Shown here: piece by piece, positions 29,982 to 54,944 of the stretch
Layout of the letters: each line of letters opens with the position of its first letter
How positions within the stretch are numbered: the stretch's first letter is position 1
NCBI GenBank assembly: GCA_964354375.1
Contig: CAYGZQ010000013.1
Span: 10,087-74,086, forward strand
Length of the DNA: 64,000 bases
Origin: an uncultured Planctomycetota bacterium
GTDB taxonomy: Bacteria > JAJVIF01 > JAPKYR01
Reading direction: 5' to 3'
Made by a program: the position numbers and the translations under genes
The notes under the pieces: model-generated
The model's database searches: none
What the model was told of the DNA's origin: nothing
What the model saw: the letters and a program-made list of their open reading frames with translations, nothing else

Positions 29982-31157
29982 ATGAGATACATCTCCGTTG
30001 TCGCGATTCTGGCCGCGCTGCTGGTTGGCTGCGCCCGCGCTGGCGATGTCGTCTCCCCATCGACTCGCAATGACCTCGGGCAGACCCCTGCGGCTGAGAA
30101 TCAAGGCCCATACCGTCTGTGGGGCGAGTGGACATGGTATATAAATGCCGACCATACGCGGGTTGATGTCGTACCCAATCGCTACGGGAGATTCCATCTG
30201 AACACGCTCAAGTTCCTCGAGAGCTACTGCACTGATTGTCTTGAAATCACGAACATTCACAATAACGGGGACGGGACGATCGATCTCGGTGTGAAAATCA
30301 CGCACCCATTCGACAATCTGCCGCAGTACACGGGTTTCGATGTCAAGGGGATCGTGATGTTCAATGCTTCGCATGAGGTCCCGTGGGAAAGTGAGCTGAT
30401 ATTCCCGCAACAGAATCCCGTTTGGGTGAGTTGGCGAGTCAAGGGCGACCCCGAGGTGCTGAACGCGGACGGGTATACTCCGAGATGGAGTCCGTGGTGG
30501 GAGACGGGCTCGGACCTTCCGATGTTCAATTACTGGCCCGGGAAATACTCGAAGGGCACACCGACCGGAGTGGTGAACGCTTTTCTGAATTTCTACACGG
30601 ATGAGGAAAGGCACATGTTTCGGGTGAACAAGTCGGTGGAAAGAGTGTATCACATCTGGCTTCCGGGGGGACCTGTTGTGGCGGGTTACGCGGTAGAGGC
30701 CTGCTGGGAGCCGCCATTAGTAAGCCCGGTGACCGATCCCGCGAGTGATTTCCCGATCTCCGCGAACCAGCCCGAGCCGTATTACTTCCGCTATGTCGTG
30801 AACGGCGGGAATATAATAACCGAGGCTCCCTGCTGCGGGAAGCCTGATGACTGCAGCACGCTATGGATAGAGAGTCATACGTGGATTGACTTCGGGAAGT
30901 GGCACGGATTCGGGAGGCTTCCCGGCTGGGCGAAGTATATCAGCTACGATGTAGGCATCGACTACATGTGCCCCGCGGAGTCGCCGGCGCCGAAACCCGA
31001 CTCATATGGGCCTTGGCCCATGTTAGAGGTATTCACAGACGCATTCCCGGATGGTACGTACCGTGGAGTTGCATGCCTTTATCCTTACCCTCAAGGCATA
31101 TACTGGACCGATACCGTCGCTTACGATGTTTTCGATTTCACAATAAACCTCGAATGA
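29982..31157 (+). CDS. P6: short family lipoprotein (conserved N-domain + small C-domain)
   Basis: GGAGG before ATG 29982, lipobox LVG-C. Motifs LWGEW, VVPNR, CTDC, HPF, GFDVKG, NADGYT, DFPISAN. No DWQ segment. Confidence 0.8.
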   Translation: MRYISVVAILAALLVGCARAGDVVSPSTRNDLGQTPAAENQGPYRLWGEWTWYINADHTRVDVVPNRYGRFHLNTLKFLESYCTDCLEITNIHNNGDGTIDLGVKITHPFDNLPQYTGFDVKGIVMFNASHEVPWESELIFPQQNPVWVSWRVKGDPEVLNADGYTPRWSPWWETGSDLPMFNYWPGKYSKGTPTGVVNAFLNFYTDEERHMFRVNKSVERVYHIWLPGGPVVAGYAVEACWEPPLVSPVTDPASDFPISANQPEPYYFRYVVNGGNIITEAPCCGKPDDCSTLWIESHTWIDFGKWHGFGRLPGWAKYISYDVGIDYMCPAESPAPKPDSYGPWPMLEVFTDAFPDGTYRGVACLYPYPQGIYWTDTVAYDVFDFTINLE

Positions 31158-31175
31158 GGAGAACGGAGGAAGCAG

Positions 31176-32954
31176 ATGAGAACAATCAGATTGGTTGCGG
31201 GGGCGATTGTCGCCCTCATGTGCGCAGCAGTTTGGGCGTCCGGATGTTCACGCGCAACTGGTCCGCTTGTGCCTGAAGCAGAAAGAGGGGGAGCTGGTTT
31301 CATCAACTCGGTTCCATTGTTCGAACCTGAGGATGCCGTCGATGATCTCGGGTTAGAGTCCGCTGGGGGGTTCCATGAGATCGCTCTTGGAACCCTTGCG
31401 CGATCCGCACTGGGAGCGGGAACTCCCGGAGAGCAGTATACATTCAATTCCTATGGAACAGCCGCGGTAAGCCTTCTGCGGCCTGACAGCGAGGATCCTC
31501 AGGCGCCGTTCAAGCCTGTGTTCAGATGGCTGCAGGGATCTCCTCAAGGGGACTTGGATCCAGGCACACCCACGGACATCGACTGGGTCACCGAAAGGGA
31601 TAATGACTCAAGCGGCAGCCATGTTGCAGAGTACAGATCAGTATCCTGTGATGCCATCTTAGCATGTTCCGAATACCCATTCTCTTATGATGTCGAGCTG
31701 GTTGTATGCTATGCGGTCAGGGGCATCCCTAAAGAGGAGGTCGACGACTTGCTCGGCGACGACTTTGGCGAGGGGGGCGAGTTTAACACCGACTGGGACA
31801 TCGGGCTCACTGTGCTTCGATGGGACGAAGAGAACGAGTTTCCCGACGCGGAACCCGCACGGACGGATTTCCTGATTCCGGACGGAGACTGGGGCGGTCT
31901 TGCCGAGAGCCAGTATCCGGATTACGACCCGGATGTAGCTTACGATCATTTCTCGGGTAATCTCTATCTGGTCTGGTCGTCGGCCGAGACCCCTTATGGT
32001 CTGGACGAGCGAGTGTTGAAATATGTCGAGTTCACCCGCGAAGGAGACTTCCAGCTTGTGCCCAGGTGGGAATATGACTACAGATGGGACGATGGATGGC
32101 CGCGAGATGTCCAGACAGACACCAGCCACAACGGCTACGACGCTAGCATAGACATTGGATATCTGGATTTCTTCCACTACCCGAATATTTGGACTCAGAA
32201 CAGTCTTTGGGTGGTTGTCGCGTACACTTCGCAGTTCCAGGGCGAACACACCGGTTTTCATGTGATGGCAGGGGGCTGGCAGGTCGACCACTGGGGAGAC
32301 AGGGTTTTCATGCCCGTCCGAATCAAAGAGAACGGAGATTATGTCAAGCGTGATGCAGGCCTGCCGTGTGTTGACATCACCCCCAATGAGAACGATCGCA
32401 ATTTCGCCGCCCTGGTGTTTGCGCAGGACACCGGGATCGACGGATATGGCCCAGTGATGAGCGTCTACGAGGCCGACCTGTTTGGGCTGGGGACAATTCT
32501 CTCCACGGAAACCAACACCGATGCGTTCACCGTTGTCCCCTGCCCGGAAGAGTACCCCGGTGACGGGCTTTTCCCGGCAATCGCACTGCATAAGGAGACA
32601 GGGACCCAGGGGCCGTTTCGCGCGAGCATCACATTCATGGCTCAGGCACCGCAGTCCGACGAGCTCAAAGCAGCCGTCATTCGCCTGGCTATCACCCCTC
32701 AGGTGAATCAGTTTCCGCCATATCTGACGGCCGATCATGAATTCGTCTGGGGGCCGGAGATTGTCCCCGGAGCACTGAGTAACATCAGCGGCAACTACAA
32801 CTTCTCCCAGATTCCGTTTCTGGACCCGGGGATTTCAACGTCCGTTGTCATCGAGCCGAGCGGCCACCGGTACTGGGCTGCGTGGTGCGAGCGAATCGAA
32901 ATGGAGCCACCTCCCGTGAATGTCTGCGGCACTTTCGGCTACACGGCGGAATGA
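31176..32954 (+). CDS. Lipoprotein, predicted beta-propeller with P-x-I/V...V-V-W-type blades
   Basis: Lipobox ASG-C. Repeats such as PDVAYD..LYLVWS, PCVDIT..ALVFAQ and PAIALH..SITFM. Confidence 0.6.
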   Translation: MRTIRLVAGAIVALMCAAVWASGCSRATGPLVPEAERGGAGFINSVPLFEPEDAVDDLGLESAGGFHEIALGTLARSALGAGTPGEQYTFNSYGTAAVSLLRPDSEDPQAPFKPVFRWLQGSPQGDLDPGTPTDIDWVTERDNDSSGSHVAEYRSVSCDAILACSEYPFSYDVELVVCYAVRGIPKEEVDDLLGDDFGEGGEFNTDWDIGLTVLRWDEENEFPDAEPARTDFLIPDGDWGGLAESQYPDYDPDVAYDHFSGNLYLVWSSAETPYGLDERVLKYVEFTREGDFQLVPRWEYDYRWDDGWPRDVQTDTSHNGYDASIDIGYLDFFHYPNIWTQNSLWVVVAYTSQFQGEHTGFHVMAGGWQVDHWGDRVFMPVRIKENGDYVKRDAGLPCVDITPNENDRNFAALVFAQDTGIDGYGPVMSVYEADLFGLGTILSTETNTDAFTVVPCPEEYPGDGLFPAIALHKETGTQGPFRASITFMAQAPQSDELKAAVIRLAITPQVNQFPPYLTADHEFVWGPEIVPGALSNISGNYNFSQIPFLDPGISTSVVIEPSGHRYWAAWCERIEMEPPPVNVCGTFGYTAE

Positions 32955-32987
32955 TGCGGCCCCGAAAGCGAGCGGTCCTAAGGGCGG

Positions 32988-34277
32988 TTATCCCAGCTCG
33001 ACCATTTGCCTGCGGCGGGTGCCGACGCCGAGGAGTGTTATCGGGACGCCCACGGCTCTGCTGATGAAGTCCAGGTAGTTCTGGAGGGCCTCGGGGAGCA
33101 CGTCGCCGGTGGCCAGAGTGCTCGTGTCGATGAGCCAGCCGGGGAGGGATTTGTAGACAGGTTTGAGCCTGGCGAGGAGCGCAGGGCCGGTCGGGAGGCG
33201 GGTGGTTATCTCGCCGTCGATTTCGTACGCTACGGCGACCCGTATCTCGGGGATATCGTCAAGAACATCCACCTTGGTGAAGGCGATGTTGGTGAGGCCG
33301 TTGATGATGGCGGAGTAACGAAGGAGGACGAGGTCGAGCCAGCCCACGCGCCTGGGACGTCCGGTCGCCGTCCCGTACTCGCTTCCCCGGTCGCGTATCT
33401 GCACCCCGAGCTCGTCCTTGAGCTCGGTGGGGAAGGGGCCCTCGCCGACCCTCGAGATATACGCCTTGACCACGCCATAGACACTGTCGATTCGATTCGG
33501 CGCCAGGCCGGTTCCGAGACACATCCCGCCCGTCACCGGATGCGAGCTCGTGAGAAACGGGTACTGGATGCCGTAGTCGATGTCCAGAAGCGTGCCCTGG
33601 GCCCCCTCGAACAGGATTGTCTTGCCGCTTTCGAGGCCCGTGATGACCGCGTCCACAGCATCCCCGACGTACTGAACCAGTTTGCCTCCGGCCTCCAGGT
33701 ATTCGTCGGCCACTTTCCCCGGATCCAGGGGCTCGACCTTGTAGAGGCCGGTAAGAAGGACATTCTTTTCCTCGCAGACATAGGCGACCCGCTCGCGAAA
33801 GGTCCTGGGATCGGTCAGATCGGCGACTCTCAGGCCGCTTCTCGACATCTTGTCGGCGAAGACCGGACCGATGCCTCGTTTCGTGGTGCCGATGATCCCC
33901 CTGGAGTCTCGCGACTGCCGGCGATTCTCCTCAAGCTCGTCGATCAGCATGTGCCAGGGCATAATGAGGTGGGCGTTGTGGCTTATGAGCAGGTTGGTGC
34001 ACGGGATTCCCCTGGCTTTGAGGCCATCGATCTCATCCAGGAGTCGTACGGGATTCAGAGCCATTCCGCTCGCGATGATGCTGGTTTTTTCGGGATGGAG
34101 GATGCCGCAGGGAATATGGTAAAGGCGAAAAACCTCCTCCTCCACCGTCACCGTGTGACCGGCGTTGTTGCCTCCCTGGCTTCGTACGACAATGTCGGCA
34201 TCCCGGGCGAGGAAATCGACTACCTTGCCCTTCCCTTCATCGCCCCATTGGGTTCCGACAACTGCAGTGGTCGGCAT
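32988..34277 (-). CDS. purA: Adenylosuccinate synthetase
   Basis: GTQWGDEGKGK, QGGNNAGHT, GTTKRGIGP, EGAQG and EYGTATGRPRRVGWLD. ATG 34277 follows AAGGAG. Confidence 0.98.
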   Translation of the reverse strand: MPTTAVVGTQWGDEGKGKVVDFLARDADIVVRSQGGNNAGHTVTVEEEVFRLYHIPCGILHPEKTSIIASGMALNPVRLLDEIDGLKARGIPCTNLLISHNAHLIMPWHMLIDELEENRRQSRDSRGIIGTTKRGIGPVFADKMSRSGLRVADLTDPRTFRERVAYVCEEKNVLLTGLYKVEPLDPGKVADEYLEAGGKLVQYVGDAVDAVITGLESGKTILFEGAQGTLLDIDYGIQYPFLTSSHPVTGGMCLGTGLAPNRIDSVYGVVKAYISRVGEGPFPTELKDELGVQIRDRGSEYGTATGRPRRVGWLDLVLLRYSAIINGLTNIAFTKVDVLDDIPEIRVAVAYEIDGEITTRLPTGPALLARLKPVYKSLPGWLIDTSTLATGDVLPEALQNYLDFISRAVGVPITLLGVGTRRRQMVELG

Positions 34278-34358
34278 CAGCAAGCTCCTTCCAGCAAAAG
34301 CGGGGAGTAAGCACCAAGAGATGAAGTGTACGTGCGACTCGAGCGCGCGTCAAGCCCC

Positions 34359-34433
34359 GTTGCATGCGTGTCCCGCGAATGGTTCTTCGGGGTTGCGCCG
34401 GAGTATGAACCATGCGCCGGAGGCGCATGCTAC
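34359..34433. repeat. Inverted REP doublet (left arm degenerate)
   Basis: GTTGCATGCGTGTCCCGCGAATGGTTCTT ... GAACCATGCGCCGGAGGCGCATGCTAC, located between the divergent purA and lemA. Confidence 0.7.
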
Positions 34434-34530
34434 GCATGTAAGAATCAGGCGCTTCAGGCGCGTGCCACATGCGGTCGACTTGTGATATACTCCGGCGCAT
34501 TAGCAGGGCATTGAAACAGCGAGAAACGGA

Positions 34531-35103
34531 GTGGACAACGTGGGAGGATTCGCGGCAGTCATAGTATTGATCGTAGCGCTTGTGGTGCTGATCTTCTGGT
34601 TCGTCGGCATCTATAACCGTCTGGTTGGCCTGAGGAACCGGGTGGACACCCAGTGGGCGCAGATCGATGTGGAGCTGAAGCGTCGGTACGACCTGATTCC
34701 GAACCTGGTGGAGACGGTAAAGGGATACGCGGCGCACGAGCGCCAGACGCTCCAGAACGTCATTGAGGCGAGGCAGGTGGCGATAGACGCGAAGACGGTG
34801 GATGAGCAGGGCGCTGCAGAGAATGTTCTGACACGGGCGCTCAGAAGCATATTCGCGCTCGCGGAAGCCTATCCGGACCTCAAAGCCAACCAGAATTTCC
34901 TTCAGTTGCAGGGCCAGTTGTCCGAAATAGAAGGAGTGATAGCAAGGGCCAGGGCGGCGTTTAACGAGTCGGTGCTTCAGTACAACAACACGGTCCAGAT
35001 GTTCCCATCGAATGTTGTGGCGGGGATGAGCGGATTCGGGCTGAGGGAGTTCTTTGAGGTCACCGATCCTGAGGTGCGAGAAGTTCCGAAAGTCCAGTTT
35101 TGA
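34531..35103 (+). CDS. lemA: LemA family protein
   Basis: N-terminal TM, then YNRLV, QIDVELKRRYDLIPNLVETVKGYAAHE, AEAYPDLKANQNFLQLQ and FPSN. Confidence 0.95.
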   Translation: MDNVGGFAAVIVLIVALVVLIFWFVGIYNRLVGLRNRVDTQWAQIDVELKRRYDLIPNLVETVKGYAAHERQTLQNVIEARQVAIDAKTVDEQGAAENVLTRALRSIFALAEAYPDLKANQNFLQLQGQLSEIEGVIARARAAFNESVLQYNNTVQMFPSNVVAGMSGFGLREFFEVTDPEVREVPKVQF

Positions 35104-35227
35104 CAGGCGGAATTGCGGTGGTATAATTCCCGCCTGGAGGCTGAATCAGAAGGCGGGAAAAGAGACGCAGGCCCAGAGAGATCACAACCCAAGGGGTTCC
35201 ATAGCAGACCCGGAAAGGAAGTGAGAC

Positions 35228-35830
35228 GTGGAACGGGATCAATTCGACCTTTTTCTAGAGCGGTGTGCGCGGGAAGTGGACCTCGGCGCCGAATTCGGCA
35301 AGGAGGGCGCGAAGGAGATATCGGAAGGGATCTGTCCGACGTGCTTCAGCTCGGTTGCCAAGGGAAGCCGCCATTGTTCGCATTGCGGGGAGTTTCAGTC
35401 GATCCCCGAAGGCGTGTCATGCACCTTCAAACCGAAGACGATCATAAAGCGGCACCTCGCGGTGACTCTCCTGTCGATTGAGGGCGGCGTGGAGATCGAC
35501 GGGCGCACATACACGCGGGCGCATCTGAAAATCCAGAATCTGTCGCCGAAACGCGTGCATATCTCGCTCACCTACGTGGACAGCGTGCTCGTGGACGTGA
35601 CAGGGAGGCAGTACTCGCCCGTGGATGCCGACGAGTTCAATGAGGATCCTGGCGAGAAGCTCTTCCCGACCTGGTTTTACATCTATCCGGATGCGTACCG
35701 CGACGGGGTTCTTCTGTTCCGCGAGAGCCCGGTGCAACTGCAGAAGGCGATAGTCTGCGCCATGCACCAGGAGAATGAAGACGAGTTGTTTGTGTTCGAT
35801 CTGAACGTCTCGCCGAAGATGCCCGAATAG
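35228..35830 (+). CDS. Hypothetical protein: zinc-ribbon (CPTC/CSHC) + beta-sandwich-like domain
   Basis: GGAAG RBS before GTG, CxxC-x10-CxxC, coding-like composition. Confidence 0.65.
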   Translation: MERDQFDLFLERCAREVDLGAEFGKEGAKEISEGICPTCFSSVAKGSRHCSHCGEFQSIPEGVSCTFKPKTIIKRHLAVTLLSIEGGVEIDGRTYTRAHLKIQNLSPKRVHISLTYVDSVLVDVTGRQYSPVDADEFNEDPGEKLFPTWFYIYPDAYRDGVLLFRESPVQLQKAIVCAMHQENEDELFVFDLNVSPKMPE

Positions 35831-35856
35831 CCCCGGATCGGCCGTTCCCGAACTGG

Positions 35857-35950
35857 AAAAAGTGCCGCCTTGACCGGCGGCTTTTCTGTTTTCCCCTCTC
35901 CGCCCGCACAAAAAAAAGCCGTCTCGAGGAACACCTCAAGACGGCCTTGA
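35857..35950. terminator. Terminators of convergent genes
   Basis: AAAAGTGCCGCC-TTGACC-GGCGGCTTTT (+ strand). On the - strand, GCCGTCT-loop-AGACGGC followed by T8. Confidence 0.65.
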
Positions 35951-35969
35951 CTGCTTCTGATTGGGCCCG

Positions 35970-36161
35970 TTAGTTACCGACGGGCGAGATATCCTGTCGT
36001 TGTACCTCGACGCCCTGGTCAATGACCTGGCCCTGAAGTCGTATGGCCTGGTCACTGACTGAAACGGACGGGCTCTTAGCCAGGGTGGCCACTCCCCAGG
36101 TCAGGAGACCGGCGAGGACCAGCAGTAGAAGAACCTTTTTGATGATCTTGGACATCGTCAT
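35970..36161 (-). CDS. Small secreted/membrane-anchored protein (63 aa) downstream of P7
   Basis: GGAAAGGAG RBS, KIIKK plus hydrophobic signal, 12 nt after the P7 stop and followed by a terminator. Confidence 0.6.
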   Translation of the reverse strand: MTMSKIIKKVLLLLVLAGLLTWGVATLAKSPSVSVSDQAIRLQGQVIDQGVEVQRQDISPVGN

Positions 36162-36173
36162 GTCTCCTTTCCA

Positions 36174-38972: not shown

Positions 38973-39449
38973 CTCAAACCTCCTGGTTCGAATTTGTTTT
39001 TTTCGCCGCCCTCAGGACGGCAAGATATGCGATTTAGGGCGCCCATGTCAACATCTGAGGACCGTAATCCTGATGCCGCGAGGTCAAGTGACTTTGAGCC
39101 CCGCGCGAGAGTCCGACCGGAATGGTAAGCTCGCATGCAATGCTGACCGTTGAGCAGGTCTAATCGCTGATATCGAAGGATATCATTTTTTGCGGTCTCC
39201 TGTCAATGGAGCCGGGGGATGGGAACTCCGGTGAAGCTCTTTGTGGGCTGATTCTTAACTATGGTGACCTATCCCGCAACGGTCGATCGAGGGGGCGGCT
39301 CGGAATCGCTAATTGCGCCCCGGCAGCACCAGACTCATGCGACGGAGCGCCGCAGGTACTTCCGGGTGACCATGGCGAGATGCTATATTCGGGATATTGC
39401 CCGTGACGCTCAAGGCGTGTATACTTCATTGCACTTGGTGATGGACCGT

Positions 39450-39524
39450 GCCGAAGTAGCTCAGTGGTAGAGCAGCTGATTCGTAATCAGCTGGTCAGGG
39501 GTTCGACTCCCCTCTTCGGCTCCA
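39450..39524 (+). tRNA. tRNA-Thr(CGT)
   Basis: GCCGAAG/CTTCGGC acceptor stem, D-loop AGTGGTA, anticodon arm GCTGA-TTCGTAA-TCAGC, TTCGA T-loop, encoded CCA. Confidence 0.97.
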
Positions 39525-39595
39525 GATGAAAGGATTCCGGCGCCGTCGGCGCCGGTTCGAGTTTTGAGACGTAGTTGACGCGGTCGCGCTGGGTC

Positions 39596-40447: not shown

Positions 40448-40569
40448 CCTTTCGGAGCAGTTGGCATTTCGGGATTGCCAAGAGGGATTAAATCTGTTAG
40501 GATAGCAGTCTACTTTCCGGGTCGAGCCCGGCTGGCGATATGACTATCACGATTGGAGGACGCCTCTTA

Positions 40570-41250: not shown

Positions 41251-41283
41251 ACTTGCAGAATAGGTAAGGCCAGCGAAAGGATC

Positions 41284-41311
41284 AGCCCCCGTATCTCTCG
41301 GGGGCTTTTTT
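41284..41311 (+). terminator. Intrinsic terminator
   Basis: AGCCCCCG-TATCTCT-CGGGGGCT followed by a T run. Confidence 0.7.
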
Positions 41312-43673: not shown

Positions 43674-44011
43674 GACTTTAGGGGTTCTTTTGTGACACAA
43701 TAATGTCTCATAAAACCCACACAATATGTTACCACGTGCGGGCTCGGAAGACTAAAGGCACGAAAGGTTCCAAACCCGGACATGAGATGGGAGAACTGAG
43801 ACGCAGGTTCAGGGGAAGGGGTCGGCGCCAGCGATCTCGGGATTGACAAAGCCGATTTTCTTTGAACCTGGATGCGGAGGATGAGTCTAATGTCAACGGG
43901 ACTGAGGGGACTGGCGAGGTCGTGGAGATCGACAGAGCCTGGCAAGGCGGCCTTCCCAATCCTCCCGGTTAAAACGATAATATTTGCGCAATCGACCAGA
44001 GGTGAAAAACC

Positions 44012-45607: not shown

Positions 45608-45634
45608 CGATAGCAGCAAGACTGGGTTTCCGGG

Positions 45635-45664
45635 AAAAGCCCCCGGCTGAGTCCGGGGGCTTTT
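45635..45664. terminator. Bidirectional-type intrinsic terminator
   Basis: AAAAGCCCCCGG-CTGAGT-CCGGGGGCTTTT. Confidence 0.75.
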
Positions 45665-45667
45665 CGT

Positions 45668-45715
45668 GTAGCACGCGCATCCCAATGTAGCACGCGCATC
45701 TTGCGCGTGGTTCTT
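45668..45715 (+). repeat. REP-like palindrome with a truncated tandem copy
   Basis: GTAGCACGCGCATC (partial), then GTAGCACGCGCA-TCT-TGCGCGTGGTTCTT. Confidence 0.75.
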
Positions 45716-45757
45716 CATGTTGCAAACGGAGCAGTCCGGAGAGTACTCTGGCGTCAC

Positions 45758-46579
45758 ATGGGCAAAGAGCAGCGTCTGATTGAGTTCGAGAAAGCCCGGC
45801 CGCTCGGGATCGGGCGCCTGACCGCGTGCGTTCCGTCCACGGAAAAGCAAAGGGGTCTTTTGATCGGGAGCACGAAGGGTCTTTATCATATGAGCAATTC
45901 GGAATCGAAGGTGCGACGTGTCAGGAATCGTCCTGTTGGGTACCTCTTATCAAGTGAAGATGGGGTGGTGTGCTACGAGGAGGCGGGGGGGCACGGAAGA
46001 ATAGCGGTGCTGGACACCGACCTCGAGGAGCGCATTGTCGACGATCAACTGGCCAGGGAGATCAATCCGAAGGCGTGCACGTGCGACGGTCTGCTGATTC
46101 TGCACCGCGACGCAATCGAGCGCATGGACCTGTCGACGCGGGAGCGACGGAGGCTTGCCGAGTTTGAGCCGGCCATTACCGTGGGGCCGTTCGCGAGCGT
46201 GAAGGGCGGCTATGAATTTCTGGCTGTCCACCGGGGGGCGCATTGGCCGACCTGGCTGTACAGGCTCGATATCAGGGGCGAACGTTGCGAGGAAGCTGTC
46301 CTGAGCAGAATCGCCCAGGCTGAGGACCCGATCTTTCCGCGAGTCTTCCTGCCGCTTCCCACCGGCGACTATTTCATCGTTCCGCAGGGGCAGTCTGTGT
46401 TCCAGACCTACCGACTGTTTTCCGGTGCAAAGCCCGAGATGAAGACATGGTCGCTGGTGGCGATACCGGGGGACGCACATCCGGTCGGAATTGTCTTGAT
46501 GGACGGGAAGCTGTACGCGGCGGGTGCGGATTGCCTGTTGATTTTCAAGCCCGGGGAAGAGCTTCTGCGCGGCTCCTGA
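45758..46579 (+). CDS. Hypothetical protein (possibly beta-rich/propeller-like)
   Basis: Long ORF filling the gap between the DegP-like gene and P8. Start uncertain, no recognised motif. Confidence 0.55.
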   Translation: MGKEQRLIEFEKARPLGIGRLTACVPSTEKQRGLLIGSTKGLYHMSNSESKVRRVRNRPVGYLLSSEDGVVCYEEAGGHGRIAVLDTDLEERIVDDQLAREINPKACTCDGLLILHRDAIERMDLSTRERRRLAEFEPAITVGPFASVKGGYEFLAVHRGAHWPTWLYRLDIRGERCEEAVLSRIAQAEDPIFPRVFLPLPTGDYFIVPQGQSVFQTYRLFSGAKPEMKTWSLVAIPGDAHPVGIVLMDGKLYAAGADCLLIFKPGEELLRGS

Positions 46580-46656
46580 AGCCATTTGCGCTATTCCATG
46601 ATATAATGCGTAGAGGTGTAGGAGTATTAGGTAATCTCTGTTCATGGAGGGAAAGC

Positions 46657-48798
46657 ATGGCTCGCAACCTGTTTCTTACAGTGAGCATGTTTCTGGTGTG
46701 CGCGATGTTATCCTGCTCAGGCGGTTTGGGCGCGCCGGTGAGTCCCGCCGGCAGCGCGTCGGGGACCGGTTCGTCCCTTGCGGCTCAGCAGACCCCTGAT
46801 TCGAGCGGGAGTAGCCGCTATCTCTGGGGATACTGGACCATGCGCTGGAATCCCGAGGCGCAGAAGCTCGAGGCGATACCGCTCCGCACGACGGAGCTGC
46901 ATGTCAATGTGGTTAGAGCCCTCGAGGACGGGATGTGTCTGACCTGCCTGGTGATCGGGAAGAACGAGTTCAATGCGGACGGAGACCTCGAAGTGCACAT
47001 TTTCATAATACATCCCGTGGAAGACACCCCGGAATTCGATGCGGACGTGTTCACTGGGTTCGATGTGAGAGGAATCGCGATCTTTGAGGGCACATATTAT
47101 TTCGATGAAAACGGACTGAAGACAAGCTGGCACGAGTACGACGAGTTTACCCTGGTGAATGCGGACGGATACACGAAGCTATGGTCTCCGGCAGCGTACC
47201 CCCCGGACTGGTTCGGTCGCCCGATTTTCGAGTACTACCCCGGGAAATACGAAGCGAACGGGTCGCAGCTTTCGACCACGCTGAACCCGTTCCGCGCATT
47301 CTATACATTGTCCGAGCGTCGCACGTTCGAAGCGCTTGGTCAGGACGAGAGGATCTTCACAATCCGCTTCCCCCACGATCCCGGCGTCCCTCTTGAGTTC
47401 GGCTACGCGGTGGACGCAAGCTGGGCGGCGCCCTCGAATCTCGATAACCCGCTTGTGCCGGATGATTTCCCGCCAAACGCGAACGCGATAGAAGCCTACA
47501 GGATCACCGCCGAATTCTCGGGCTCCCTGACTCCCATAGGCGGACAGAGCTTTGTTCTCATACATGTCTATGACTGGCAGGGGAACGGAACCATTGCATC
47601 GGTGTCTCTTGAAGCTCCGGACCTGTTCAATGGTATCGTGACTGCCAACCATGCCGCCGATTTTCCGACCTACTCCGAGTTTACGGCCACCATTAACAAC
47701 GGCCTGCTGGCGGACCTTGGGACATATCCGGTGTTGATCACCGTCGAGGACACAGCCACGGTGGCGATAGTCGGAAAAATAAACGCCTACGATGTCTTCA
47801 CTATTGATGTGATCCCGCCTCTGGATCTGCTCGAAACCGTGCCCCTCGCTTGCGACCCTATCGAGGGCGATTTCGATACCGTCACCCAGACCTGCTACTT
47901 CGCCCCCGTACCCGGCGTGCTGAACAAGCGAATCATGGGAATCGACTCGACTTTCAATGTCGTGACCGGTTTCCCCAAGGTCCTCGCGACCGGAGGGATC
48001 GGACTCTGCGGCGTCAAGTCGGAGATTTACCTGGCGACGGACATCGGGACCCCCGATTTCGAGGACGACATCAGCGTGTTCGACATAGACGCAAAGGCGC
48101 TGAAGTATGCGATCGACATAGTCACCCCGAACGGGTCGGCGAAACCTATCGATTTCGTCGCCTACGACCTGATGGCCGAGGTCTGGGTTTCCAGGTTCAA
48201 CGACAACCTTGTAGGTGTCTTTTTCGCCGACAACGCGAACCCGGACATCACTGGTATCGACCTTGATGGAACGGGTCCGACAACTCTGGCGCTGGACGAC
48301 GCAAACTACCAGGTTTTCGTGGCGTGCGACGGGAGCGACACGATAGCGGTCATCGACGGATACGGGCACAGCCTCAAGGGCACGATCGAGCTGAACACGC
48401 CGCTGGTGAGTCCCGATCCGCTGCTTCCGGCCGTCATTGGTATGGCCTACGTGCCGTCTTCGAACATGTTGTATGCCACAACGCTGGGAGCCGGGAAAGT
48501 GGAATACTACGATCTCAGCGACTACAGCTACAAAGGCTCGATCCAGTTGATGCCGGAAGATACCGGAGCGGTGGTCGGACTCGTGTACGATCCGGGTCTG
48601 AATATCCTGGTGGCCACCGGCCAGGTGGCATCGGGCCACGGACATCTCTGGGCCATCGATCCGGTCGCGAACGAGGAAATCTACGATGCGGAGACGACGG
48701 GCATGAACCCGAGCTTCCCCGGCATCGATAAGGTCAACCACATACTGTTTGTGCCCGATCCGATCGGCCACGTCGACATCTTCAAAATCGTGAATTAG
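46657..48798 (+). CDS. P8: large lipoprotein, conserved N-domain + YVTN-like beta-propeller
   Basis: TGATATAAT at 46599, GGAGG RBS, lipobox MLS-C. Motifs IPLR, CLTC, GFDVRG, NADGYT, DWQG, then GPTTLALD..VFVACDGSDTIAVID repeats. Confidence 0.82.
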   Translation: MARNLFLTVSMFLVCAMLSCSGGLGAPVSPAGSASGTGSSLAAQQTPDSSGSSRYLWGYWTMRWNPEAQKLEAIPLRTTELHVNVVRALEDGMCLTCLVIGKNEFNADGDLEVHIFIIHPVEDTPEFDADVFTGFDVRGIAIFEGTYYFDENGLKTSWHEYDEFTLVNADGYTKLWSPAAYPPDWFGRPIFEYYPGKYEANGSQLSTTLNPFRAFYTLSERRTFEALGQDERIFTIRFPHDPGVPLEFGYAVDASWAAPSNLDNPLVPDDFPPNANAIEAYRITAEFSGSLTPIGGQSFVLIHVYDWQGNGTIASVSLEAPDLFNGIVTANHAADFPTYSEFTATINNGLLADLGTYPVLITVEDTATVAIVGKINAYDVFTIDVIPPLDLLETVPLACDPIEGDFDTVTQTCYFAPVPGVLNKRIMGIDSTFNVVTGFPKVLATGGIGLCGVKSEIYLATDIGTPDFEDDISVFDIDAKALKYAIDIVTPNGSAKPIDFVAYDLMAEVWVSRFNDNLVGVFFADNANPDITGIDLDGTGPTTLALDDANYQVFVACDGSDTIAVIDGYGHSLKGTIELNTPLVSPDPLLPAVIGMAYVPSSNMLYATTLGAGKVEYYDLSDYSYKGSIQLMPEDTGAVVGLVYDPGLNILVATGQVASGHGHLWAIDPVANEEIYDAETTGMNPSFPGIDKVNHILFVPDPIGHVDIFKIVN

Positions 48799-48904
48799 TA
48801 AACAGGGGGAACGACGACCAAAATCCGGCTCGGCAGGAGCCTCGCCCTCCCATCGGTACCGTTCGGGTGTGAGGCACTTGCCGAGCCGTTCTGTTGCTGA
48901 AGGC

Positions 48905-50440
48905 CTAGTGATTCAGGCTTATGTCGATCTCGCCGATCTCGGACTCGACGGCATCGACCACTTCTCCCGACCACACAAGCTCCCCGCACTTGATGACATC
49001 GTGATACAGCACCCTGTCGTCGACAAGCCTCGTGACATACTTCCGGATGACATCGTACGCCACCTTCGACCCCTTTCCGGGTTTACTGGGAGCGCGGAAG
49101 TCGAAAGCCTGCGCAGCCGACATCATCTCGATGCCGATGACATTGGCCACGTTCTTGAGCACCTCGTTGAACTTGCGGATCGCAATCGGGCCCATGCTGA
49201 CGTGATCCTCCTGGTCGGCTGAAACGGAGATGGAGTCGCAGCTTGCCGGGTGGCAGAAGACCTTGTTCTCGCTGACGAGGCTGGCGGCGGTGTACTGAGC
49301 GACCATGAGGCCGGAATTCAGGCCGCGACCCTCGACGAGGAAGTCGGGCAGTCCGGACAGTACCGGGTTCAAAAGACGGTTCGTGTGTCGCTCGGAGAGA
49401 TCGGCCAGCTCGGCGACCGCGATTGTGAGGTAGTCGATCGCGAGGCCGATGCCCTGGCCGTGGAAATTGCCGCCGGCGATGTGCATTTTTTCGTCCGGGA
49501 AAAACAGGGGATTGTCGGCGGCGGAATTAAGCTCCTGCTCGATCCAGTCTTTGGCGAAGTGCCAGATATCGATTGTGGGGCCCTGTACCTGCGGCGTGCA
49601 TCGCATCGAGTACCCGTCCTGCACTTTCCCGGACTTGTCGGCCATGATCTCGCTGTCGGCGAAGACGGCATTGAGATAATGGGCGACGGTCATCTGGCCC
49701 TTGTGCGGTCGGGCGGCGTGAAGCTTGGGATGGTAGGCTTTGAGCACTCCCTTGAGCGCGTCTATTGTCATCGCGGCCGCGATAATGGCTGCCTTGATAA
49801 GGCGGCGGGCGTCGGTGAGCTGTATGCAGGCCTCGCCCGTCATCATTTGCGAGCCGTTGATCAGACCCAGTCCTTCCTTGTAGAAAAGCTCCAGGGGTTT
49901 CAGGCCGACCTTTTTCATGGCCTCGGCGCCCGGCATGCGCACGCCGTCCACCCAGGCCTCGCCCTCGCCCAGGCACACTTCCGCAAGCTGGGACAGCGGG
50001 CTTAAGTCGCCGGACGTTCCGACGGAACCCTTCTCGTTAACGATGGGAACCACACCGCGATTGAACATCTCTGCGTAGAAATCGGCGGTGCTCTCGCGCA
50101 CGCCGGTATGCCCGTTCGCGATCACGTTGGCCCTCGCGACCATGGCGGCGCGGACCCTCTCGGGAGGGAACAGGCCGCCGCAACCCGCTGCGTGTGAGTA
50201 TATGATCCGTTTCTGCAGCTCGCCTCCCATCGCGGGATCGATGCGTATGCGGGCGAACTCGCCGATGCCGGTGGTTACGCCGTAGATGGCCTCCCCGCTG
50301 TCGACAAGCTCCCTCACCACGGCCTCGCATTTCCTGATCTTCTCTCTCGCCTCTTTCGAGAACGAAATCCTGCCGCCTTCTTTTGCGATGCCGGCAACCT
50401 GATCGATGGTAAGGCTTACGCCGTCAAGGATGACATCCAT
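48905..50440 (-). CDS. hutH: Histidine ammonia-lyase
   Basis: IYGVTTGIG, YSHAAG (His-specificity SH), GSVGTSGDL, KEGLGLING, QDGYSMRCTPQV, NSAADNP, GGNFHG and QEDHVSMG. Confidence 0.88.
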   Translation of the reverse strand: MDVILDGVSLTIDQVAGIAKEGGRISFSKEAREKIRKCEAVVRELVDSGEAIYGVTTGIGEFARIRIDPAMGGELQKRIIYSHAAGCGGLFPPERVRAAMVARANVIANGHTGVRESTADFYAEMFNRGVVPIVNEKGSVGTSGDLSPLSQLAEVCLGEGEAWVDGVRMPGAEAMKKVGLKPLELFYKEGLGLINGSQMMTGEACIQLTDARRLIKAAIIAAAMTIDALKGVLKAYHPKLHAARPHKGQMTVAHYLNAVFADSEIMADKSGKVQDGYSMRCTPQVQGPTIDIWHFAKDWIEQELNSAADNPLFFPDEKMHIAGGNFHGQGIGLAIDYLTIAVAELADLSERHTNRLLNPVLSGLPDFLVEGRGLNSGLMVAQYTAASLVSENKVFCHPASCDSISVSADQEDHVSMGPIAIRKFNEVLKNVANVIGIEMMSAAQAFDFRAPSKPGKGSKVAYDVIRKYVTRLVDDRVLYHDVIKCGELVWSGEVVDAVESEIGEIDISLNH

Positions 50441-50632
50441 GTATCTCACTCCCGTGAAAATGTGCTCCTGAGAAACCCGCGTATTCTACCAGCTTGGGTA
50501 CTACGGGACAACAGGCCGGGTCCGCCGCCTTTCCAGGCGGCATCTTATTGACTAATCAGAGCCGACTGGAAAGTCGGCGCACCCGGCAACTGATTCAAGG
50601 GTGATCCGGTCCAGTTCAATGTCGGCGCTCTT

Positions 50633-51103
50633 TCACTTCTCCTGTTCAACTGCGATAACGGTCGGCTCGATTGCGATGTCGGCGTTCACGCTGTGAGCCA
50701 TGAAGCACATCTTATGGGCTCTCTCAATGTAAGCGCGCGCCGTTTCTACATCGCTTTCGTTTCTCACCACAACTCTGGGCCTGATAGTCATCTTCGTGAA
50801 TCTGATGGTGACGCCGTCATTTTCGAGAAGTCCTTCTGTTTCCGATTCATATGAGACGAACTCGAAGTTCTTGCGCAGGCAGTAGCTGACAAAGGAGGCC
50901 AGCAGGCAGGAGTTCACGGAGGCAAGAAGAAGCTCCCCGGGAGGCCATCGCCCCGGAGGTCCCCCGGAATCGATCGGCGAACCTCCGTCAATCGAGCTCG
51001 TTCCCTGGGACGTGATCTGCCAGGTGCGATCACCGGTCCATGCTGCGGATACCCTGTAAGTGTGAGGCTTGAAGGTTTTTTCCTTATCAGGTTTCTCGTT
51101 CAT
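50633..51103 (-). CDS. OsmC family protein
   Basis: PGELLLASVNSC and AHKMCFMAHSV, containing the two conserved Cys. Confidence 0.85.
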   Translation of the reverse strand: MNEKPDKEKTFKPHTYRVSAAWTGDRTWQITSQGTSSIDGGSPIDSGGPPGRWPPGELLLASVNSCLLASFVSYCLRKNFEFVSYESETEGLLENDGVTIRFTKMTIRPRVVVRNESDVETARAYIERAHKMCFMAHSVNADIAIEPTVIAVEQEK

Positions 51104-51196
51104 GGGGCATCAACCTTCGTAAGTCACAAAAAACCCCGGACAGAGCCGGGGACTATTTCCGTGCTGCCGAGCGAGCAACTACGCCTGGGCGTCCTG

Positions 51197-51889
51197 TTAT
51201 TCCCGGACTATGACAGTGACGTAGTTCGAGACAACGCCTATATACTCGCAGCTCACGACGGTGGTGCCGACGGGTCCGGTCGCCCGGAAGAGACCGTACA
51301 GCGAGCCCCATGCGTACGCATTGTCGGCGTCGATGATGAAGCCGGGCTTGTCGTCTGAGACGCGCCAGTCGACCAGGTTAGTGACAACCTGGCTCGTGCC
51401 GTTCGAGTAGTAGGCGGTGGCCTCAAACTGCGCGGTCTGGCCGATCGGAACGGAGACCCAGGTCGGCTCGACCTGCAGGGCCGACAGAATCACAGGCTGA
51501 GGTCCGCCGGTCCCTGGGATTTCGGGGCCTTCCACGACGATCACGATCGCCTGGCTCGTAACGCCCTTGTAAGAGCATGTTATCGAGGCCGTCCCCCCAC
51601 CCACGGCGTGCAGGATGCCCTTGGCAAGTATCTCGATCACTTTCGTGTCGCTCGACATCCAGTCGGCATAGGCGGTGATCCTGTAGGTCGCGGTGCCGGA
51701 ATAGATTCCCGTGGCGCCGACCGCGAAAACCTGACCGGGTCTCATCGAGCCGGGATCGTTGAAGATGTTGATCTGCAACAGGGCCCCCTTGGGCTCCAGG
51801 CTCGGCGTGATGCTGCCTCTGCAGCCCAGTCCGAACAGGACGGCGATGACGGCCAGCGGCAGAATTATTCGGAACATGGATACGCGCAT
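51197..51889 (-). CDS. Lipoprotein with two bacterial Ig-like group 2 (BIG2) domains
   Basis: Lipobox GLG-C, WMSSDTKV...GTASITCSY and QFEATAYYSNGT...VDWRVSD. Followed by a terminator-like hairpin at about 51127-51157. Confidence 0.8.
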   Translation of the reverse strand: MRVSMFRIILPLAVIAVLFGLGCRGSITPSLEPKGALLQINIFNDPGSMRPGQVFAVGATGIYSGTATYRITAYADWMSSDTKVIEILAKGILHAVGGGTASITCSYKGVTSQAIVIVVEGPEIPGTGGPQPVILSALQVEPTWVSVPIGQTAQFEATAYYSNGTSQVVTNLVDWRVSDDKPGFIIDADNAYAWGSLYGLFRATGPVGTTVVSCEYIGVVSNYVTVIVRE

Positions 51890-52086
51890 CTAGCGCACCT
51901 CCGAAGGAGTTCGACAGATAGAAACCAACCCGGCGGTCAGACCGTCCCGGTTGAATCGGCATAGTAGCATCAGCCGTTCGCAGGTGTCAAGGTTTGAGCC
52001 GAAATGCTGAGGAGCGATCTGCAAACATGCATCGGCACAACCACAAGCGGGGATGCGGTCCGGCCCCATCCCCGCTTTGATTTCAA

Positions 52087-53352
52087 TCACCACTCCCCGT
52101 CGGGAGCTTCCATGGCTACGTCGAGCAGATGCCATTCGAGCGAAAGTAGAGTATGCGTATCAGGGTTCTTGATGTTCAGCCTGAAAATATACGGCACTTC
52201 CGCGGGCAAGAAGTCCGGCTGATTCTCATATACCTCCGGATAGAGAGCTGTGTAGAAGGAGGGTCCCTGATTTGGTCCTGCGAAGACGTAGTCATCGGGT
52301 TCGCCATTGGGATCCGGCATCAAATCGTTATTCGCGATGCCATTGTCAACGATCCCAGCTTCTTGAGCCACCCACTTAGTCTTGAAATAATCGTTCCAGA
52401 GTTTGACATGCCAGTGGATTTTTGCGCCGTTCACTTCCGAAGGAGCATCTGGGTCGATCGGGGCATCCTGAGTGATGTAGAACTCGTACGGCATCGGCGA
52501 GTTCGCCTCGGGCCCGAAGTCGGTTGCCGGGTTTACGACGGGTGTCTTCACCGGCGGCGCCCAGTGCGCGTATATCGCGTACGACGCCTGAATCGGGCCA
52601 TCAGAGGGGGGCCTGATTATGTACGTGCGAGTGACGGTCTTCCCGGCCTCAAACATGTGCCTCGTCTCGTTCGAGTAGTACCTCTTGAAGGCATTGATCG
52701 TTCCCAGGTTCTCCCCCGACGCCCACTTGCCGGGATAATAGCCGAAGATCGGCAGACCCTCGTCAAGATCATGATCCGTCGGGTGCGGATTGTCTGGAGA
52801 GAATATGGTTGTCCACCCGTCAGGACTAGTCAGTTCTGCGTCGCCTTTTTCGTGAGACGACCATCTCCCTTTCCACTCTCCGGGATCGTCGATTCCCGCG
52901 ATGATCCACAGGTCGTCGTCAGGCCAGTTCTGCGAGGCGGGGAACATTATGATGCCCTTGACGTCGAAGCCGGTGCAGTACTTATTGTCCGCAGGCCATG
53001 GATGCCTGATGGAGATATCAACTGATACGTCCCCGCCCGCTGTCAGATGAATGTTTGAAAGCTTCAGGCAGTCCATGCAAGGAGCGACCTCGAGGAGCTT
53101 GACCACATTGAGGTGGTAACCCCATTCCCCCGATGCCGTCCGATCAAGAGTGGCAGTCCCGTATGAGCCGTCTCTGCCGATCTCGAGGTTGTAAAGGCCC
53201 CACTTCAGATATTGCCCCATGTCGCTCCTTGATGTGCCTTGAGGCGCCGCATTCATGAAAAGTGACAGGTTGCCGATCGGGTCCCTCCCGGTGCTTCGGC
53301 TGCACCCTATGGAGAGAACAAACATAACCAGAAGGAATATGCGTCCTTTCAT
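52087..53352 (-). CDS. P9: short family lipoprotein (conserved N-domain + small C-domain)
   Basis: GGAGG RBS, lipobox SIG-C. Motifs CMDC, HPW, GFDVKG, SPDGWT, DFGPEAN. No DWQ segment. Confidence 0.8.
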   Translation of the reverse strand: MKGRIFLLVMFVLSIGCSRSTGRDPIGNLSLFMNAAPQGTSRSDMGQYLKWGLYNLEIGRDGSYGTATLDRTASGEWGYHLNVVKLLEVAPCMDCLKLSNIHLTAGGDVSVDISIRHPWPADNKYCTGFDVKGIIMFPASQNWPDDDLWIIAGIDDPGEWKGRWSSHEKGDAELTSPDGWTTIFSPDNPHPTDHDLDEGLPIFGYYPGKWASGENLGTINAFKRYYSNETRHMFEAGKTVTRTYIIRPPSDGPIQASYAIYAHWAPPVKTPVVNPATDFGPEANSPMPYEFYITQDAPIDPDAPSEVNGAKIHWHVKLWNDYFKTKWVAQEAGIVDNGIANNDLMPDPNGEPDDYVFAGPNQGPSFYTALYPEVYENQPDFLPAEVPYIFRLNIKNPDTHTLLSLEWHLLDVAMEAPDGEW

Positions 53353-53372
53353 GAGAAACCTCCTTTGAAGTG

Positions 53373-54944
53373 TCACTGCACCTGGCAATCGGTCAGCTCC
53401 GCATAGTAACTGCTAGTGTCAATCCAACCAAGCCCGAGGTAGGAATCACCGACCGTCTCATCGGGAATCCGCAAACAGACGGTTGAGCCCGTGAAGGGAT
53501 TTACCCCTGTCCAGTAGCAGTCCGCGTCTTCATTCCATTCGACACCCTTGCTGGTGAAAGTGAAAGTGCTCGATTGATAGTTCATTTCCAAGCCGATTCG
53601 CCTGACGTAGATGTCCCAGTCTTGGTCATCCTCATTGTAGGAATAGTAGCTGACTGCGAACTGGTGCTCTTCGTCGTTCATCTGGTAAGCAGCCACGTCC
53701 GAGCACCGGCTCCAGCCGCTTGCGCCGGGCATGCTCTGATAGTTGCCCATGTAAGGTGTTGCCGTAATCGCAACCCAGTAGTTTCCCCATTCCTCGGTTT
53801 GGGAGTCGTAGGTGGTCGTCCACCATGTAATCATCGCCTCATGCACCTGCGACGAATGCGAAGGGATGGACAATTGCGGAAGCAAGTTGCTTGTGTACTC
53901 TCCCTCACCACTAAAGGAGATCTGCTGGGTGCTGTAGGGGTCCGGCGTGGAGAGCGGCTCCCAATCGTTATAGAAAACATTGTAGATATCGCTGTTGACG
54001 GTTGACGTGTTCTCACACCACACAGCGACTACGTCTCCATAGGAGCCCGGGTGGAGCTCGTTGTTTCTGATTTGGCCCGCATCGATGTTGGCACACCATT
54101 TCGCATTCGAATTCGATTCGTTGACCTGCTCCGGAGAGTCCCAGGCATCAAGATCGTCAATGTCCGCATACTCATGACGTGCAGCCCTTATGACATCATT
54201 GAAGGTCGGCGCCTGCTGCAGGAAGACGACGAAGAGATCATTGAATGCTGTGAGAACGCACAGGTCCGGTTCGATCTGGTCAGTATCAGGTTCGTCCCAC
54301 GGCAGCTTCACCGTCTCATCCGTGTCCGGGTTATACCAGTCGATACCGTCATCGTTCTCGTCGACGTCCCAGGCCAGCATCCGGTAGTACAAAGCCCAGA
54401 AATCATTCTCCGGGTAGGCCTCCGTCAATTCCGACCAGATCACGTGCACTCTGAGTGTCCCGACCTCCCCCTCCGGTGCACGCTCGTACGTGACTTCCAC
54501 CGCGGGATGCCGTGCGAAAGGATCGCTTGGCGACATTGCATCGGCACTGAAAGTATCTTCGAATACATTCACCTCCTCCTCATCGAGGAGGATCAAATGT
54601 ATCTCGGATTTCGCTTCGTAGTTGTCGTGTCTCACGACGGCAGTGACAAAGGTAGAGAAGGTGTCGCCGTCCCCTATCCTGTCGTTGTACGCGATATCGC
54701 CGCAGACTGTGCTCTCGCAGGGATATACTGAGATCGTCGATCCCGAGTCGAGACTGTAACCTACTCCCCACTGTGATGGGGCGTTGATGCTTTGTCCTGT
54801 TCTGAAGATTCCGCCCGAGCCATCGAAGGAAATCGGGTCTGATGCGCCGTTACAACCGACCGCCATGCTGAGAGTGAGGGACATAACCAGGAACGCGGTT
54901 AGCGCATTCCCCCCCCCCGAATACGACCGAGACTTGCGGAACAT
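53373..54944 (-). CDS. Lipoprotein, predicted beta-propeller (similar blade pattern to 31176..32954)
   Basis: Lipobox AVG-C. Repeats HPAVEV..VHVIWSE, PDLCVL..LFVVFLQ, ANIDAG..VVAVWCE and PQLSIP..AMITWW. Confidence 0.6.
   Translation of the reverse strand: MFRKSRSYSGGGNALTAFLVMSLTLSMAVGCNGASDPISFDGSGGIFRTGQSINAPSQWGVGYSLDSGSTISVYPCESTVCGDIAYNDRIGDGDTFSTFVTAVVRHDNYEAKSEIHLILLDEEEVNVFEDTFSADAMSPSDPFARHPAVEVTYERAPEGEVGTLRVHVIWSELTEAYPENDFWALYYRMLAWDVDENDDGIDWYNPDTDETVKLPWDEPDTDQIEPDLCVLTAFNDLFVVFLQQAPTFNDVIRAARHEYADIDDLDAWDSPEQVNESNSNAKWCANIDAGQIRNNELHPGSYGDVVAVWCENTSTVNSDIYNVFYNDWEPLSTPDPYSTQQISFSGEGEYTSNLLPQLSIPSHSSQVHEAMITWWTTTYDSQTEEWGNYWVAITATPYMGNYQSMPGASGWSRCSDVAAYQMNDEEHQFAVSYYSYNEDDQDWDIYVRRIGLEMNYQSSTFTFTSKGVEWNEDADCYWTGVNPFTGSTVCLRIPDETVGDSYLGLGWIDTSSYYAELTDCQVQ

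Follow-up and report, generated by a model that had tools for sequence, protein, structure and literature searches.

A two-gene lipoprotein unit with a predicted propeller partner at two loci of an uncultured Planctomycetota bacterium

Two loci are described here in a stretch of 64,000 nucleotides (nt) from an uncultured Planctomycetota bacterium, referred to below as the window (contig CAYGZQ010000013.1, C13:10087-74086, of a 4.17-Mb assembly in 153 contigs with 58.5% GC; C-numbers denote contigs of this genome, G000, and L-numbers contigs of related loci, mostly outside it). Each locus joins a short member of a large lipoprotein family, the A-family, to a stand-alone lipoprotein, here termed PB. 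On the forward strand, PA6 (also P6; 29982..31157, 391 aa, beginning MRYISVVAILAALLVGC) is followed after an intergenic gap of 18 nt by PB6 (31176..32954, 592 aa), with a GGAGG ribosome-binding site ahead of PB6. On the reverse strand, PB9 (53373..54944, 523 aa) precedes PA9 (also P9; 52087..53352, 421 aa, with the C-terminus APDGEW) by 20 nt, with AAGGAGG ahead of PA9. The first locus reads A then B and the other B then A; at both, a separate Shine-Dalgarno sequence precedes the second gene. An earlier, sequence-only reading of the window had described co-oriented lipoprotein partners of 520-590 aa, about 20 nt away and in opposite gene order at the two loci, and the coordinates bear this out. 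All four products carry a signal peptide with a lipobox 17-31 residues from the start (LVGC in PA6, ASGC within WASGC in PB6, AVGC in PB9 and SIGC in PA9; sought as the sequence pattern [LVI][ASTVI][GAS]C), and are on these grounds predicted to be lipoproteins.

Domain A is about 260 aa long and occurs in 256 open reading frames (ORFs) of this genome, nine of them in the window. Together the A-family ORFs amount to 635 kb, or 15.2% of the 4.17-Mb genome (estimated to be 99% complete), an unusually large share for one paralogous family. Long members consist of domain A, a segment with the motif G-G-x(6-8)-[VI]-x-D-W-Q, and then diverse passengers. The motif is present in all seven long members of the window and absent from PA6 and PA9, which end some 90-110 aa past domain A. 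As the sequence-only reading had it, P6 and P9 show domain A with CxxC (YCTDC in PA6, PCMDC in PA9), no DWQ domain and a small C-terminal part. CxxC is not a family-wide feature, being found among the nine window members only in P2, P6, P8 and P9. The tail of the two short proteins aligns by position with the start of the DWQ segment, and W-H or W-N replaces DWQ in it (KWHG in P6, LWNDY in P9); because of this position and replacement, the tail may be a degenerate form or remnant of domain B, and to "lack domain B" then means only to be without the recognisable motif and everything beyond it. In a structure model of PA6 made with AlphaFold2 (AF2), residues 303-346 are disordered and are followed by an ordered, conserved C-terminal beta-hairpin (358-388). 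Neither Pfam nor NCBIfam has a model that the short-A clades match.

The PB proteins are likewise without a match in Pfam or NCBIfam, and a sequence-profile search of PDB gave no meaningful match. Pairwise comparison by BLAST and phmmer revealed no similarity between PB6 and PB9, or between either and any other ORF of the window. Comparison of families is more informative: alignments of the PB6 family (11 sequences) and the PB9 family (6 sequences) match in hhalign at 98% (E 2.8e-13, 337 columns), and hidden Markov models (HMMs) of the two families cross-hit, each finding members of the other. On the basis of the profile-profile match and the cross-hits, PB6 and PB9 are assigned as remote homologues to one PB superfamily.

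An AF2 model of PB6 from a 20-sequence alignment (predicted local distance difference test, pLDDT, 75; predicted template-modelling score, pTM, 0.84) is all-beta, with about six four-stranded blades and a closing C-terminal sheet. When compared by Foldseek with PDB, its best matches were NanJ, NanI, fungal KDNases, the R. gnavus trans-sialidase and paramyxovirus attachment proteins. These six-bladed sialidase-type matches had E values of 2e-7 to 1e-4 at probability 1.0 and were followed by five-bladed GH43, GH130 and GH117 propellers; all matches lay at template-modelling (TM) scores of 0.33-0.49 and 8-12% identity. The earlier claim that the partners are propellers is thus supported for PB6 by the model, as a predicted six-bladed, sialidase-like beta-propeller without Asp-boxes, and for PB9 by its homology to PB6. 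None of five PB proteins contains a motif resembling the Asp-box (S-x-D-x-G-x-T-W). Across the 20 aligned PB sequences, G328 alone is invariant and W207, D253, W298, D326 and L396 are nearly so, and no conserved set of Arg, Tyr or Glu is visible in that alignment. The label "sialidase" is not supported for PB.

The pairing itself is conserved well beyond the window. In this genome there are 13 A-then-B and 5-6 B-then-A loci (about 19 together), with gaps of -41 to +108 nt; a short A gene immediately precedes all 13 PB6-type genes, some of them cut by contig ends, and immediately follows all 5-6 PB9-type genes or fragments. Outside this genome, 5.8 billion clustered proteins include just three relatives of PB6 and three of PB9, and on all six of their contigs the partner is present in the same order. 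A profile search of 1.84 billion representatives yielded 206 PB clusters. For four distant PB relatives (63-412 bits) a gene of 365-403 aa lies 26-37 nt upstream in each, and it is an A-family member in 3/3 of the distant contigs with DNA. Within a set of 40 related genomes, PB occurs in 8 of the 9 that belong to the same family (this genome included) and matches weakly in two genomes of the same order; none was found in the more distant genomes of the set. A short A gene adjoins every related-genome PB locus with enough flanking sequence, and the pair and its order are kept in the outside contigs L001-L003, L004-L007, L008-L013, a JGI contig, L014-L023 and L031. In total, adjacency and orientation are kept at about 19 loci here and on more than 20 outside contigs, which come from at least 8 related genomes and several metagenomes; conservation across genomes, which the sequence-only reading had put forward as a check, holds wherever the flank sufficed. 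A search for related loci with a closer PB sequence set returned 2 genome loci only. The unit is limited to a single family of uncultivated bacteria, apart from weak matches elsewhere in the order. In L031 (G009:C46:5000-13000), from a genome of the same order and a different family, two identical B-then-A units stand in tandem, each with a 587-aa PB-like and a 413-aa short A protein.

A tree of domain A with 225 sequences places the A proteins that have a PB6-type partner in one clade of 13 short members including PA6 (support 0.999); 12 of the 13 have a PB6-type gene directly downstream, and the thirteenth (on C4) has PB remnants. Those with a PB9-type partner fall in a clade of seven short members including PA9 (support 1.0), in which five have a PB9-type gene directly upstream and two (on C59 and C3) have the PB deleted. 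The two clades unite as a 20-member clade of short proteins only, with weak support (0.27). Across 18 pairs the identity matrices of A and B are closely correlated (r = 0.90, Mantel; reached by 0 of 2000 permutations), and the correlation persists within the PB6 type alone (r = 0.86). Mean identity within the PB6 type is 0.31 for B vs 0.49 for A; of the two, PB evolves more quickly. Both loci go back to a single two-gene operon whose copies diverged long ago. In the simplest history the split unit arose once, its gene order was inverted one time, and the genes then duplicated together with no exchange of partners.

Strain comparison shows the pair changing as a block. Contig L004 (JGI 3300031952; independently assembled as L005 in ENA) is syntenic with 48.9-60.5 kb of the window, and in the flanks its proteins are 92-97% and its DNA 88-95.5% identical to the window; across the cassette, PB9 is 36% and PA9 49% identical. 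The PB9-PA9 cassette has been replaced as a unit between close strains. DNA similarity between the two ends at about 54847, just past the codon for the lipobox Cys of PB9 (54852-54854), and resumes at 52122, 35 nt before the PA9 stop. At the first break lies a conserved 5' expression cassette of the B-then-A operon (54845..55100, reverse strand), comprising the upstream region, ribosome-binding site and signal peptide, which is 91.7% identical to C3:7787-7978, 78.8% to C59 and 83-94% to L004. At the other lies a conserved 63-nt 3' boundary element (52060..52122, reverse strand), which takes in the final 35 nt of PA9 with the stop codon and 27 nt of following sequence, and is 92-94% identical to the same position at the paralogous loci C59, C10 and C61. 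The break points of the replacement coincide with sequence elements that are conserved among paralogous loci. The PB proteins of L004, L006 and L007 share 80-84% mutual identity in three different genomic contexts, and the differences among them are clustered in patches.

The PA6-PB6 cassette has a related history. Contig L042, from the same metagenome as L004, matches 22642-30155 of the window at 93.6%. It keeps the first 174 nt and the last 115 nt or so of PA6, joined in frame, together with the ribosome-binding site and ATG of PB6, and similarity resumes just past the PB6 stop. The cassette has been deleted in the metagenome of a related strain, with the gene ends alone left. At L042:7700-7830, in the place of PB6, a 34-nt unit (GTAGCCCGGCATCTCCTTTGCCGGG[G/A]ATAGAGCAA) is repeated three times in tandem; every copy forms a perfect hairpin, and the units look like a small repeat of the REP/MITE type (repetitive extragenic palindrome/miniature inverted-repeat transposable element). 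At C3:7550-8150, C59:12950-13330 and C4:20665-21090 the expression cassette and the short A are kept and the PB is nearly all lost; its first and last codons remain at all three, and at C59 they form an in-frame mini-ORF. A 185-aa remnant at C47:16776-17333 has a PB9-like N-terminus and a tail resembling the PA9 C-terminus; a G9 directly after its lipobox Cys puts the frame out, with two further G9 runs in the 900 nt to either side.

The conserved pairing, the tight coupling, the co-divergence and the joint replacement between strains support the conclusion that the two genes are a functional unit. This is the part of the earlier interpretation that stands. The "Rosetta-stone" argument is not borne out as stated: it needs a fused form of domain A and PB, and none was found, since the 150 proteins listed from the 206 clusters are all of 595 aa or less and align from their own N-terminus, and the A-family ORFs of the genome gave no match to PB profiles (jackhmmer, hmmsearch) beyond the signal-peptide region. 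The suggestion that the partners are like the propellers fused in P4 and P5 also fails, as neither BLAST/phmmer nor hhalign detects sequence similarity; identity with those propellers is rejected because the PB profile matched P4 and P5 only in the lipobox region. The only fused protein with any PB similarity is that of L028:403-2835 (G010:C399), from a genome of the same order: 811 aa with domain A and a BNR propeller of four Asp-boxes (SADGGMTW, SNDFGITW, STDGGDTW and SCDEGETW). The match covers one blade and is weak (HMM E 2.5e-8 from a tiny database, and a probability of 42% in hhalign); it fits, without proving it, the possibility that PB is a very diverged BNR-like propeller.

Docking of the two partners was approached by co-folding PA6 and PB6 as a single chain of 990 residues, translated through the TGA, with an alignment of 7 paired rows, naturally in frame, and 26 unpaired ones. 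Some noise remained in this alignment, as MAFFT placed 20-40 N-terminal residues of B-only rows into the A half despite trimming. The AF2 model had a pTM of 0.57 and a pLDDT of 71 (53-71 over five models); since this pTM is near the size fraction of the larger domain, the model is read as two independently placed domains without a confident interface. In Foldseek the fused model gave propeller matches only, and none to domain A among the best 50. In 6 of the 11 A-then-B pairs compared, both genes lie in one frame and a single stop (TGA in the window) separates them. Programmed read-through of PA6 into PB6 was considered and set aside, because only these six pairs are in frame, some of them close relatives, and because PB6 has a ribosome-binding site, start codon and lipobox of its own. 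The shared frame is probably a matter of phylogenetic inertia.

Homopolymer tracts are a further feature of these loci. Genome-wide there are 40 G or C runs of at least 9, eight of them at the 5' ends of pair loci, and G8 promoter tracts are found at two additional A-then-B loci (in the window and on C40); tract lengths throughout are those read from assemblies. The candidate PA6-PB6 promoter (29884..29912, forward strand), about 70 nt upstream of the ATG, consists of TTGACA (29884-29889), a 17-nt spacer, TGA and TATACG (29907-29912), and a G8 tract (29895-29902) lies inside the spacer. A TTGACA-N17/19-(TG)TAnnnn layout is found 70-90 nt upstream of the ATG at 13/13 A-then-B loci, and at 5 of these the spacer includes a homopolymer (G8, G9 or C9). 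The spacer is 17 nt with G8 in the window and on C40, and 19 nt with G9 on C9 and with C9 on C15 and C4; interrupted tracts are found in the spacers of C36 (17 nt) and L042 (GGGGCGGGGG; 19 nt).

At the B-then-A loci the tract lies in the coding sequence. PB9 carries a G10 (54909..54918, reverse strand) in codons 9-12, within the signal peptide, and is in frame in this assembly. The corresponding 5' coding tract is interrupted and in frame in L004 (GGGGCGGGGG); it is G9 in L006, out of frame, with the gene call starting at a downstream ATG; G9 and out of frame on C59; G9 on C2, out of frame with respect to a GTG start that has a strong ribosome-binding site; and G9 in L007, in frame by way of a 1-nt difference upstream. 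Two traits by which contingency loci are recognised were looked for: a homopolymer of at least 8 in the promoter spacer or 5' coding region is present at both loci, and tract lengths that differ between near-identical alleles, giving predicted on and off states, are seen among the assemblies. From these comparisons of assemblies we infer slippage of the tracts within the population.

Taken with the strain swap and deletion, the poly-G tracts make the loci look like a variable surface-protein system of a familiar kind. The reading that we favour, and hold to be probable with a good measure of doubt, combines these elements: the loci would encode a phase-variable, recombining, two-part surface lipoprotein module. 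The operon would produce a short A-family lipoprotein and a separately exported, six-bladed, sialidase-like propeller lipoprotein (PB), and the pair would function jointly in the cell envelope, as a counterpart in two pieces to the fused "domain A + passenger" lipoproteins. In it, short A would form the base and PB a variable ligand-binding head. PB is probably not an enzyme, because Asp-boxes are missing and only G328 is invariant across 20 sequences. Slippage of poly-G would switch expression on and off, through the promoter spacer at A-then-B loci and through the signal-peptide codons at B-then-A loci, and the conserved flanks may serve as homology arms for the exchange of cassettes among paralogous loci and strains.

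Several points weigh against this reading. The lipobox is all that points to surface exposure, and even to an outer-membrane location; the PB9 fold depends on homology to PB6, of which the only model was made; a simple consensus scan did not call the PA6-PB6 promoter, because its second hexamer ends in G; and three promoter tracts give a 19-nt spacer, which is "off" only by assumption. Other points are what would be expected if the genes were simply co-transcribed neighbours that duplicate together, with independent products, ordinary family turnover and tract differences that amount to assembly noise. The co-fold, with its widely varying models, gave no confident interface. A-only loci exist, in that A is kept and PB lost at C3, C59 and C4, so that A persists alone, at least as a remnant. 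Co-divergence is expected of any adjacent genes that duplicate together, and co-duplication alone predicts the mirror-tree correlation. Lastly, the poly-G lengths were compared between assemblies, and their differences could reflect homopolymer errors, to which short-read assemblies are prone. Against such an account, the pairing persists down to about 13-20% PB identity, through the inversion of gene order and across several genera; the break points of the replacement coincide with elements that are conserved across the paralogous loci; many independent loci carry tracts at matching functional positions; and the independent assemblies L004 and L005 agree. Mere neighbourhood is for these reasons considered an unlikely explanation.

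Somewhat less likely still is that PB is an active carbohydrate-processing enzyme (sialidase-, GH43- or GH130-like), with short A as an accessory that binds substrate or provides an anchor, in a glycan-harvesting operon. The best structural matches are indeed sialidases, KDNases, GH43/GH117 hydrolases and GH130 phosphorylases, at probability 1.0 and E values down to 2e-7, and the lipoprotein nature of both products recalls many surface glycan-utilisation systems. The same matches, however, reach TM scores of only 0.33-0.49 at 8-12% identity, there is neither an Asp-box nor a Pfam or NCBIfam match to BNR, sialidase or glycoside hydrolase models, and almost no polar residue is conserved across the PB superfamily. 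An identity of 36% at the same locus, between flanks of 92-97%, is also unlike a housekeeping enzyme. That short A is a transient export, sorting or folding helper for PB and not its structural base is very improbable: the strict operon link, the greater conservation of A, and a domain A common to 256 lipoproteins, which could mean a shared envelope-targeting role, speak for it, but fused members keep domain A attached to the passenger, which fits a structural module better, A carries its own lipobox and is made in a stoichiometric operon context, and no similarity to known sorting factors was found in Pfam, NCBIfam or the best 50 matches of Foldseek.

The favoured two-part surface module can be extended to a more specific proposal. 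The 5' cassette and the 63-nt 3' element could be dedicated handles by which matched cassettes of base and propeller head are shuffled among at least a dozen chromosomal loci, each gated independently by a poly-G switch. We put this forward as a speculative and rather unlikely idea. If it were true, it would amount to combinatorial surface variation with a logic comparable to antigenic variation of pathogens, in a free-living sediment lineage, with a new heterodimeric lipoprotein architecture and presumably under pressure from phages or predators.

Codon usage adds little to this picture. The GC content at third codon positions (GC3) is 0.673 for PA6, 0.641 for PB6, 0.680 for PA9 and 0.687 for PB9, while neighbouring genes are mostly at 0.72-0.81. 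Genome-wide means are 0.666 for the PB family, 0.694 for paired short A and 0.725 for long A, and the median of other ORFs is 0.722. The impression from the sequence-only reading that the partner genes use more A/T-ending codons is therefore in agreement with GC3, although the effect is small: as a group the PB family is shifted (p = 0.004), slightly and without an outlier signal. A foreign origin by codon usage was rejected, as the four genes lie only at the 24th-34th GC3 percentile of the genome.

PA6-PB6 is bordered upstream by a terminator-like hairpin (29803-29827), which follows an NHL/CarboxypepD_reg gene, and downstream by convergent purA. Downstream of PB9-PA9 lie a 230-aa gene, an OsmC-like gene and an aromatic-amino-acid-lyase-like gene; upstream, a GT4 glycosyltransferase gene is divergent. 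Right after the stop of the GT4 gene, at about 55815-55900, the window has an inverted-repeat insert of about 75 nt (GGGGCAGGCTTTCCAGCCTGCC ... GGCAGGCTGGAAAGCCTGCCCC), which is missing from L004, otherwise 94% identical there. Farther on, two tandem genes (59126-60508 and 60521-61990) encode proteins 79-86% identical to the product of an L004 gene annotated as serpin (Pfam PF00079).

A full-text literature search found no such system, though parts of it have counterparts. Neisseria hpuAB (and tbpBA) are two-gene operons for bipartite receptors in iron uptake, with phase variation shown experimentally. As in hpuAB, there is a two-gene operon in which the first gene encodes a lipoprotein and a 5' coding poly-G sets the frame, and the products are strongly strain-variable and assumed to act as a pair. 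The Neisseria partner, however, is a TonB-dependent beta-barrel where here it is a second lipoprotein, no propeller is involved there, and there is no relationship of sequence or fold; function and phase variation are experimental in Neisseria and deduced here. Homopolymer switches in the promoter spacer are known from vlp of Mycoplasma hyorhinis (poly-A) and from porA and opc of Neisseria meningitidis (poly-G/C). There too the homopolymer lies between the -35 and -10 of variable surface (lipo)protein genes and sets the spacer length, much as G8 gives PA6-PB6 a 17-nt spacer and the 9-mers of paralogues give 19 nt. The differences are that only 5/13 paralogous promoters have the tract, that it is known here from sequence alone, and that the present host is an uncultivated environmental bacterium and is not host-associated. 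With the GH33/BNR sialidases (C. perfringens NanI/NanJ; PDB 8u5o, 9c20) PB shares the predicted six-bladed, four-stranded propeller; it differs in having no Asp-box or profile match, at 9-10% identity and a TM below 0.5, and the Arg triad and Tyr/Glu pair are not evident in PB alignments. The nearest comparison is with the fused A-family members, which like the short members have domain A and a lipoprotein anchor and come from the same host lineage, and some of whose passengers are propellers. P6 and P9, in contrast, are without DWQ motif or passenger, and PB is not seen fused and has no detectable kinship to the fused passengers of the window.

What seems new, on the databases and literature searched, are the PB and short-A families and the split unit; variable surface lipoproteins, homopolymer switches and domain fission are known as kinds of mechanism. 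Neither the short-A clades nor PB, with its 206 clusters at 50% identity, has a model in Pfam or NCBIfam, and both could become new families. Nowhere but at the split loci are base module and "head" encoded as separate proteins, which makes the proposed relationship of base to head directly testable there. Cassette replacement and the two kinds of poly-G tract suggest the biology of contingency loci, classically a trait of pathogens, in an uncultivated environmental lineage. If this is true, selection may act most strongly on the surface molecules that these genes encode, which could be phage receptors or adhesins, for example.

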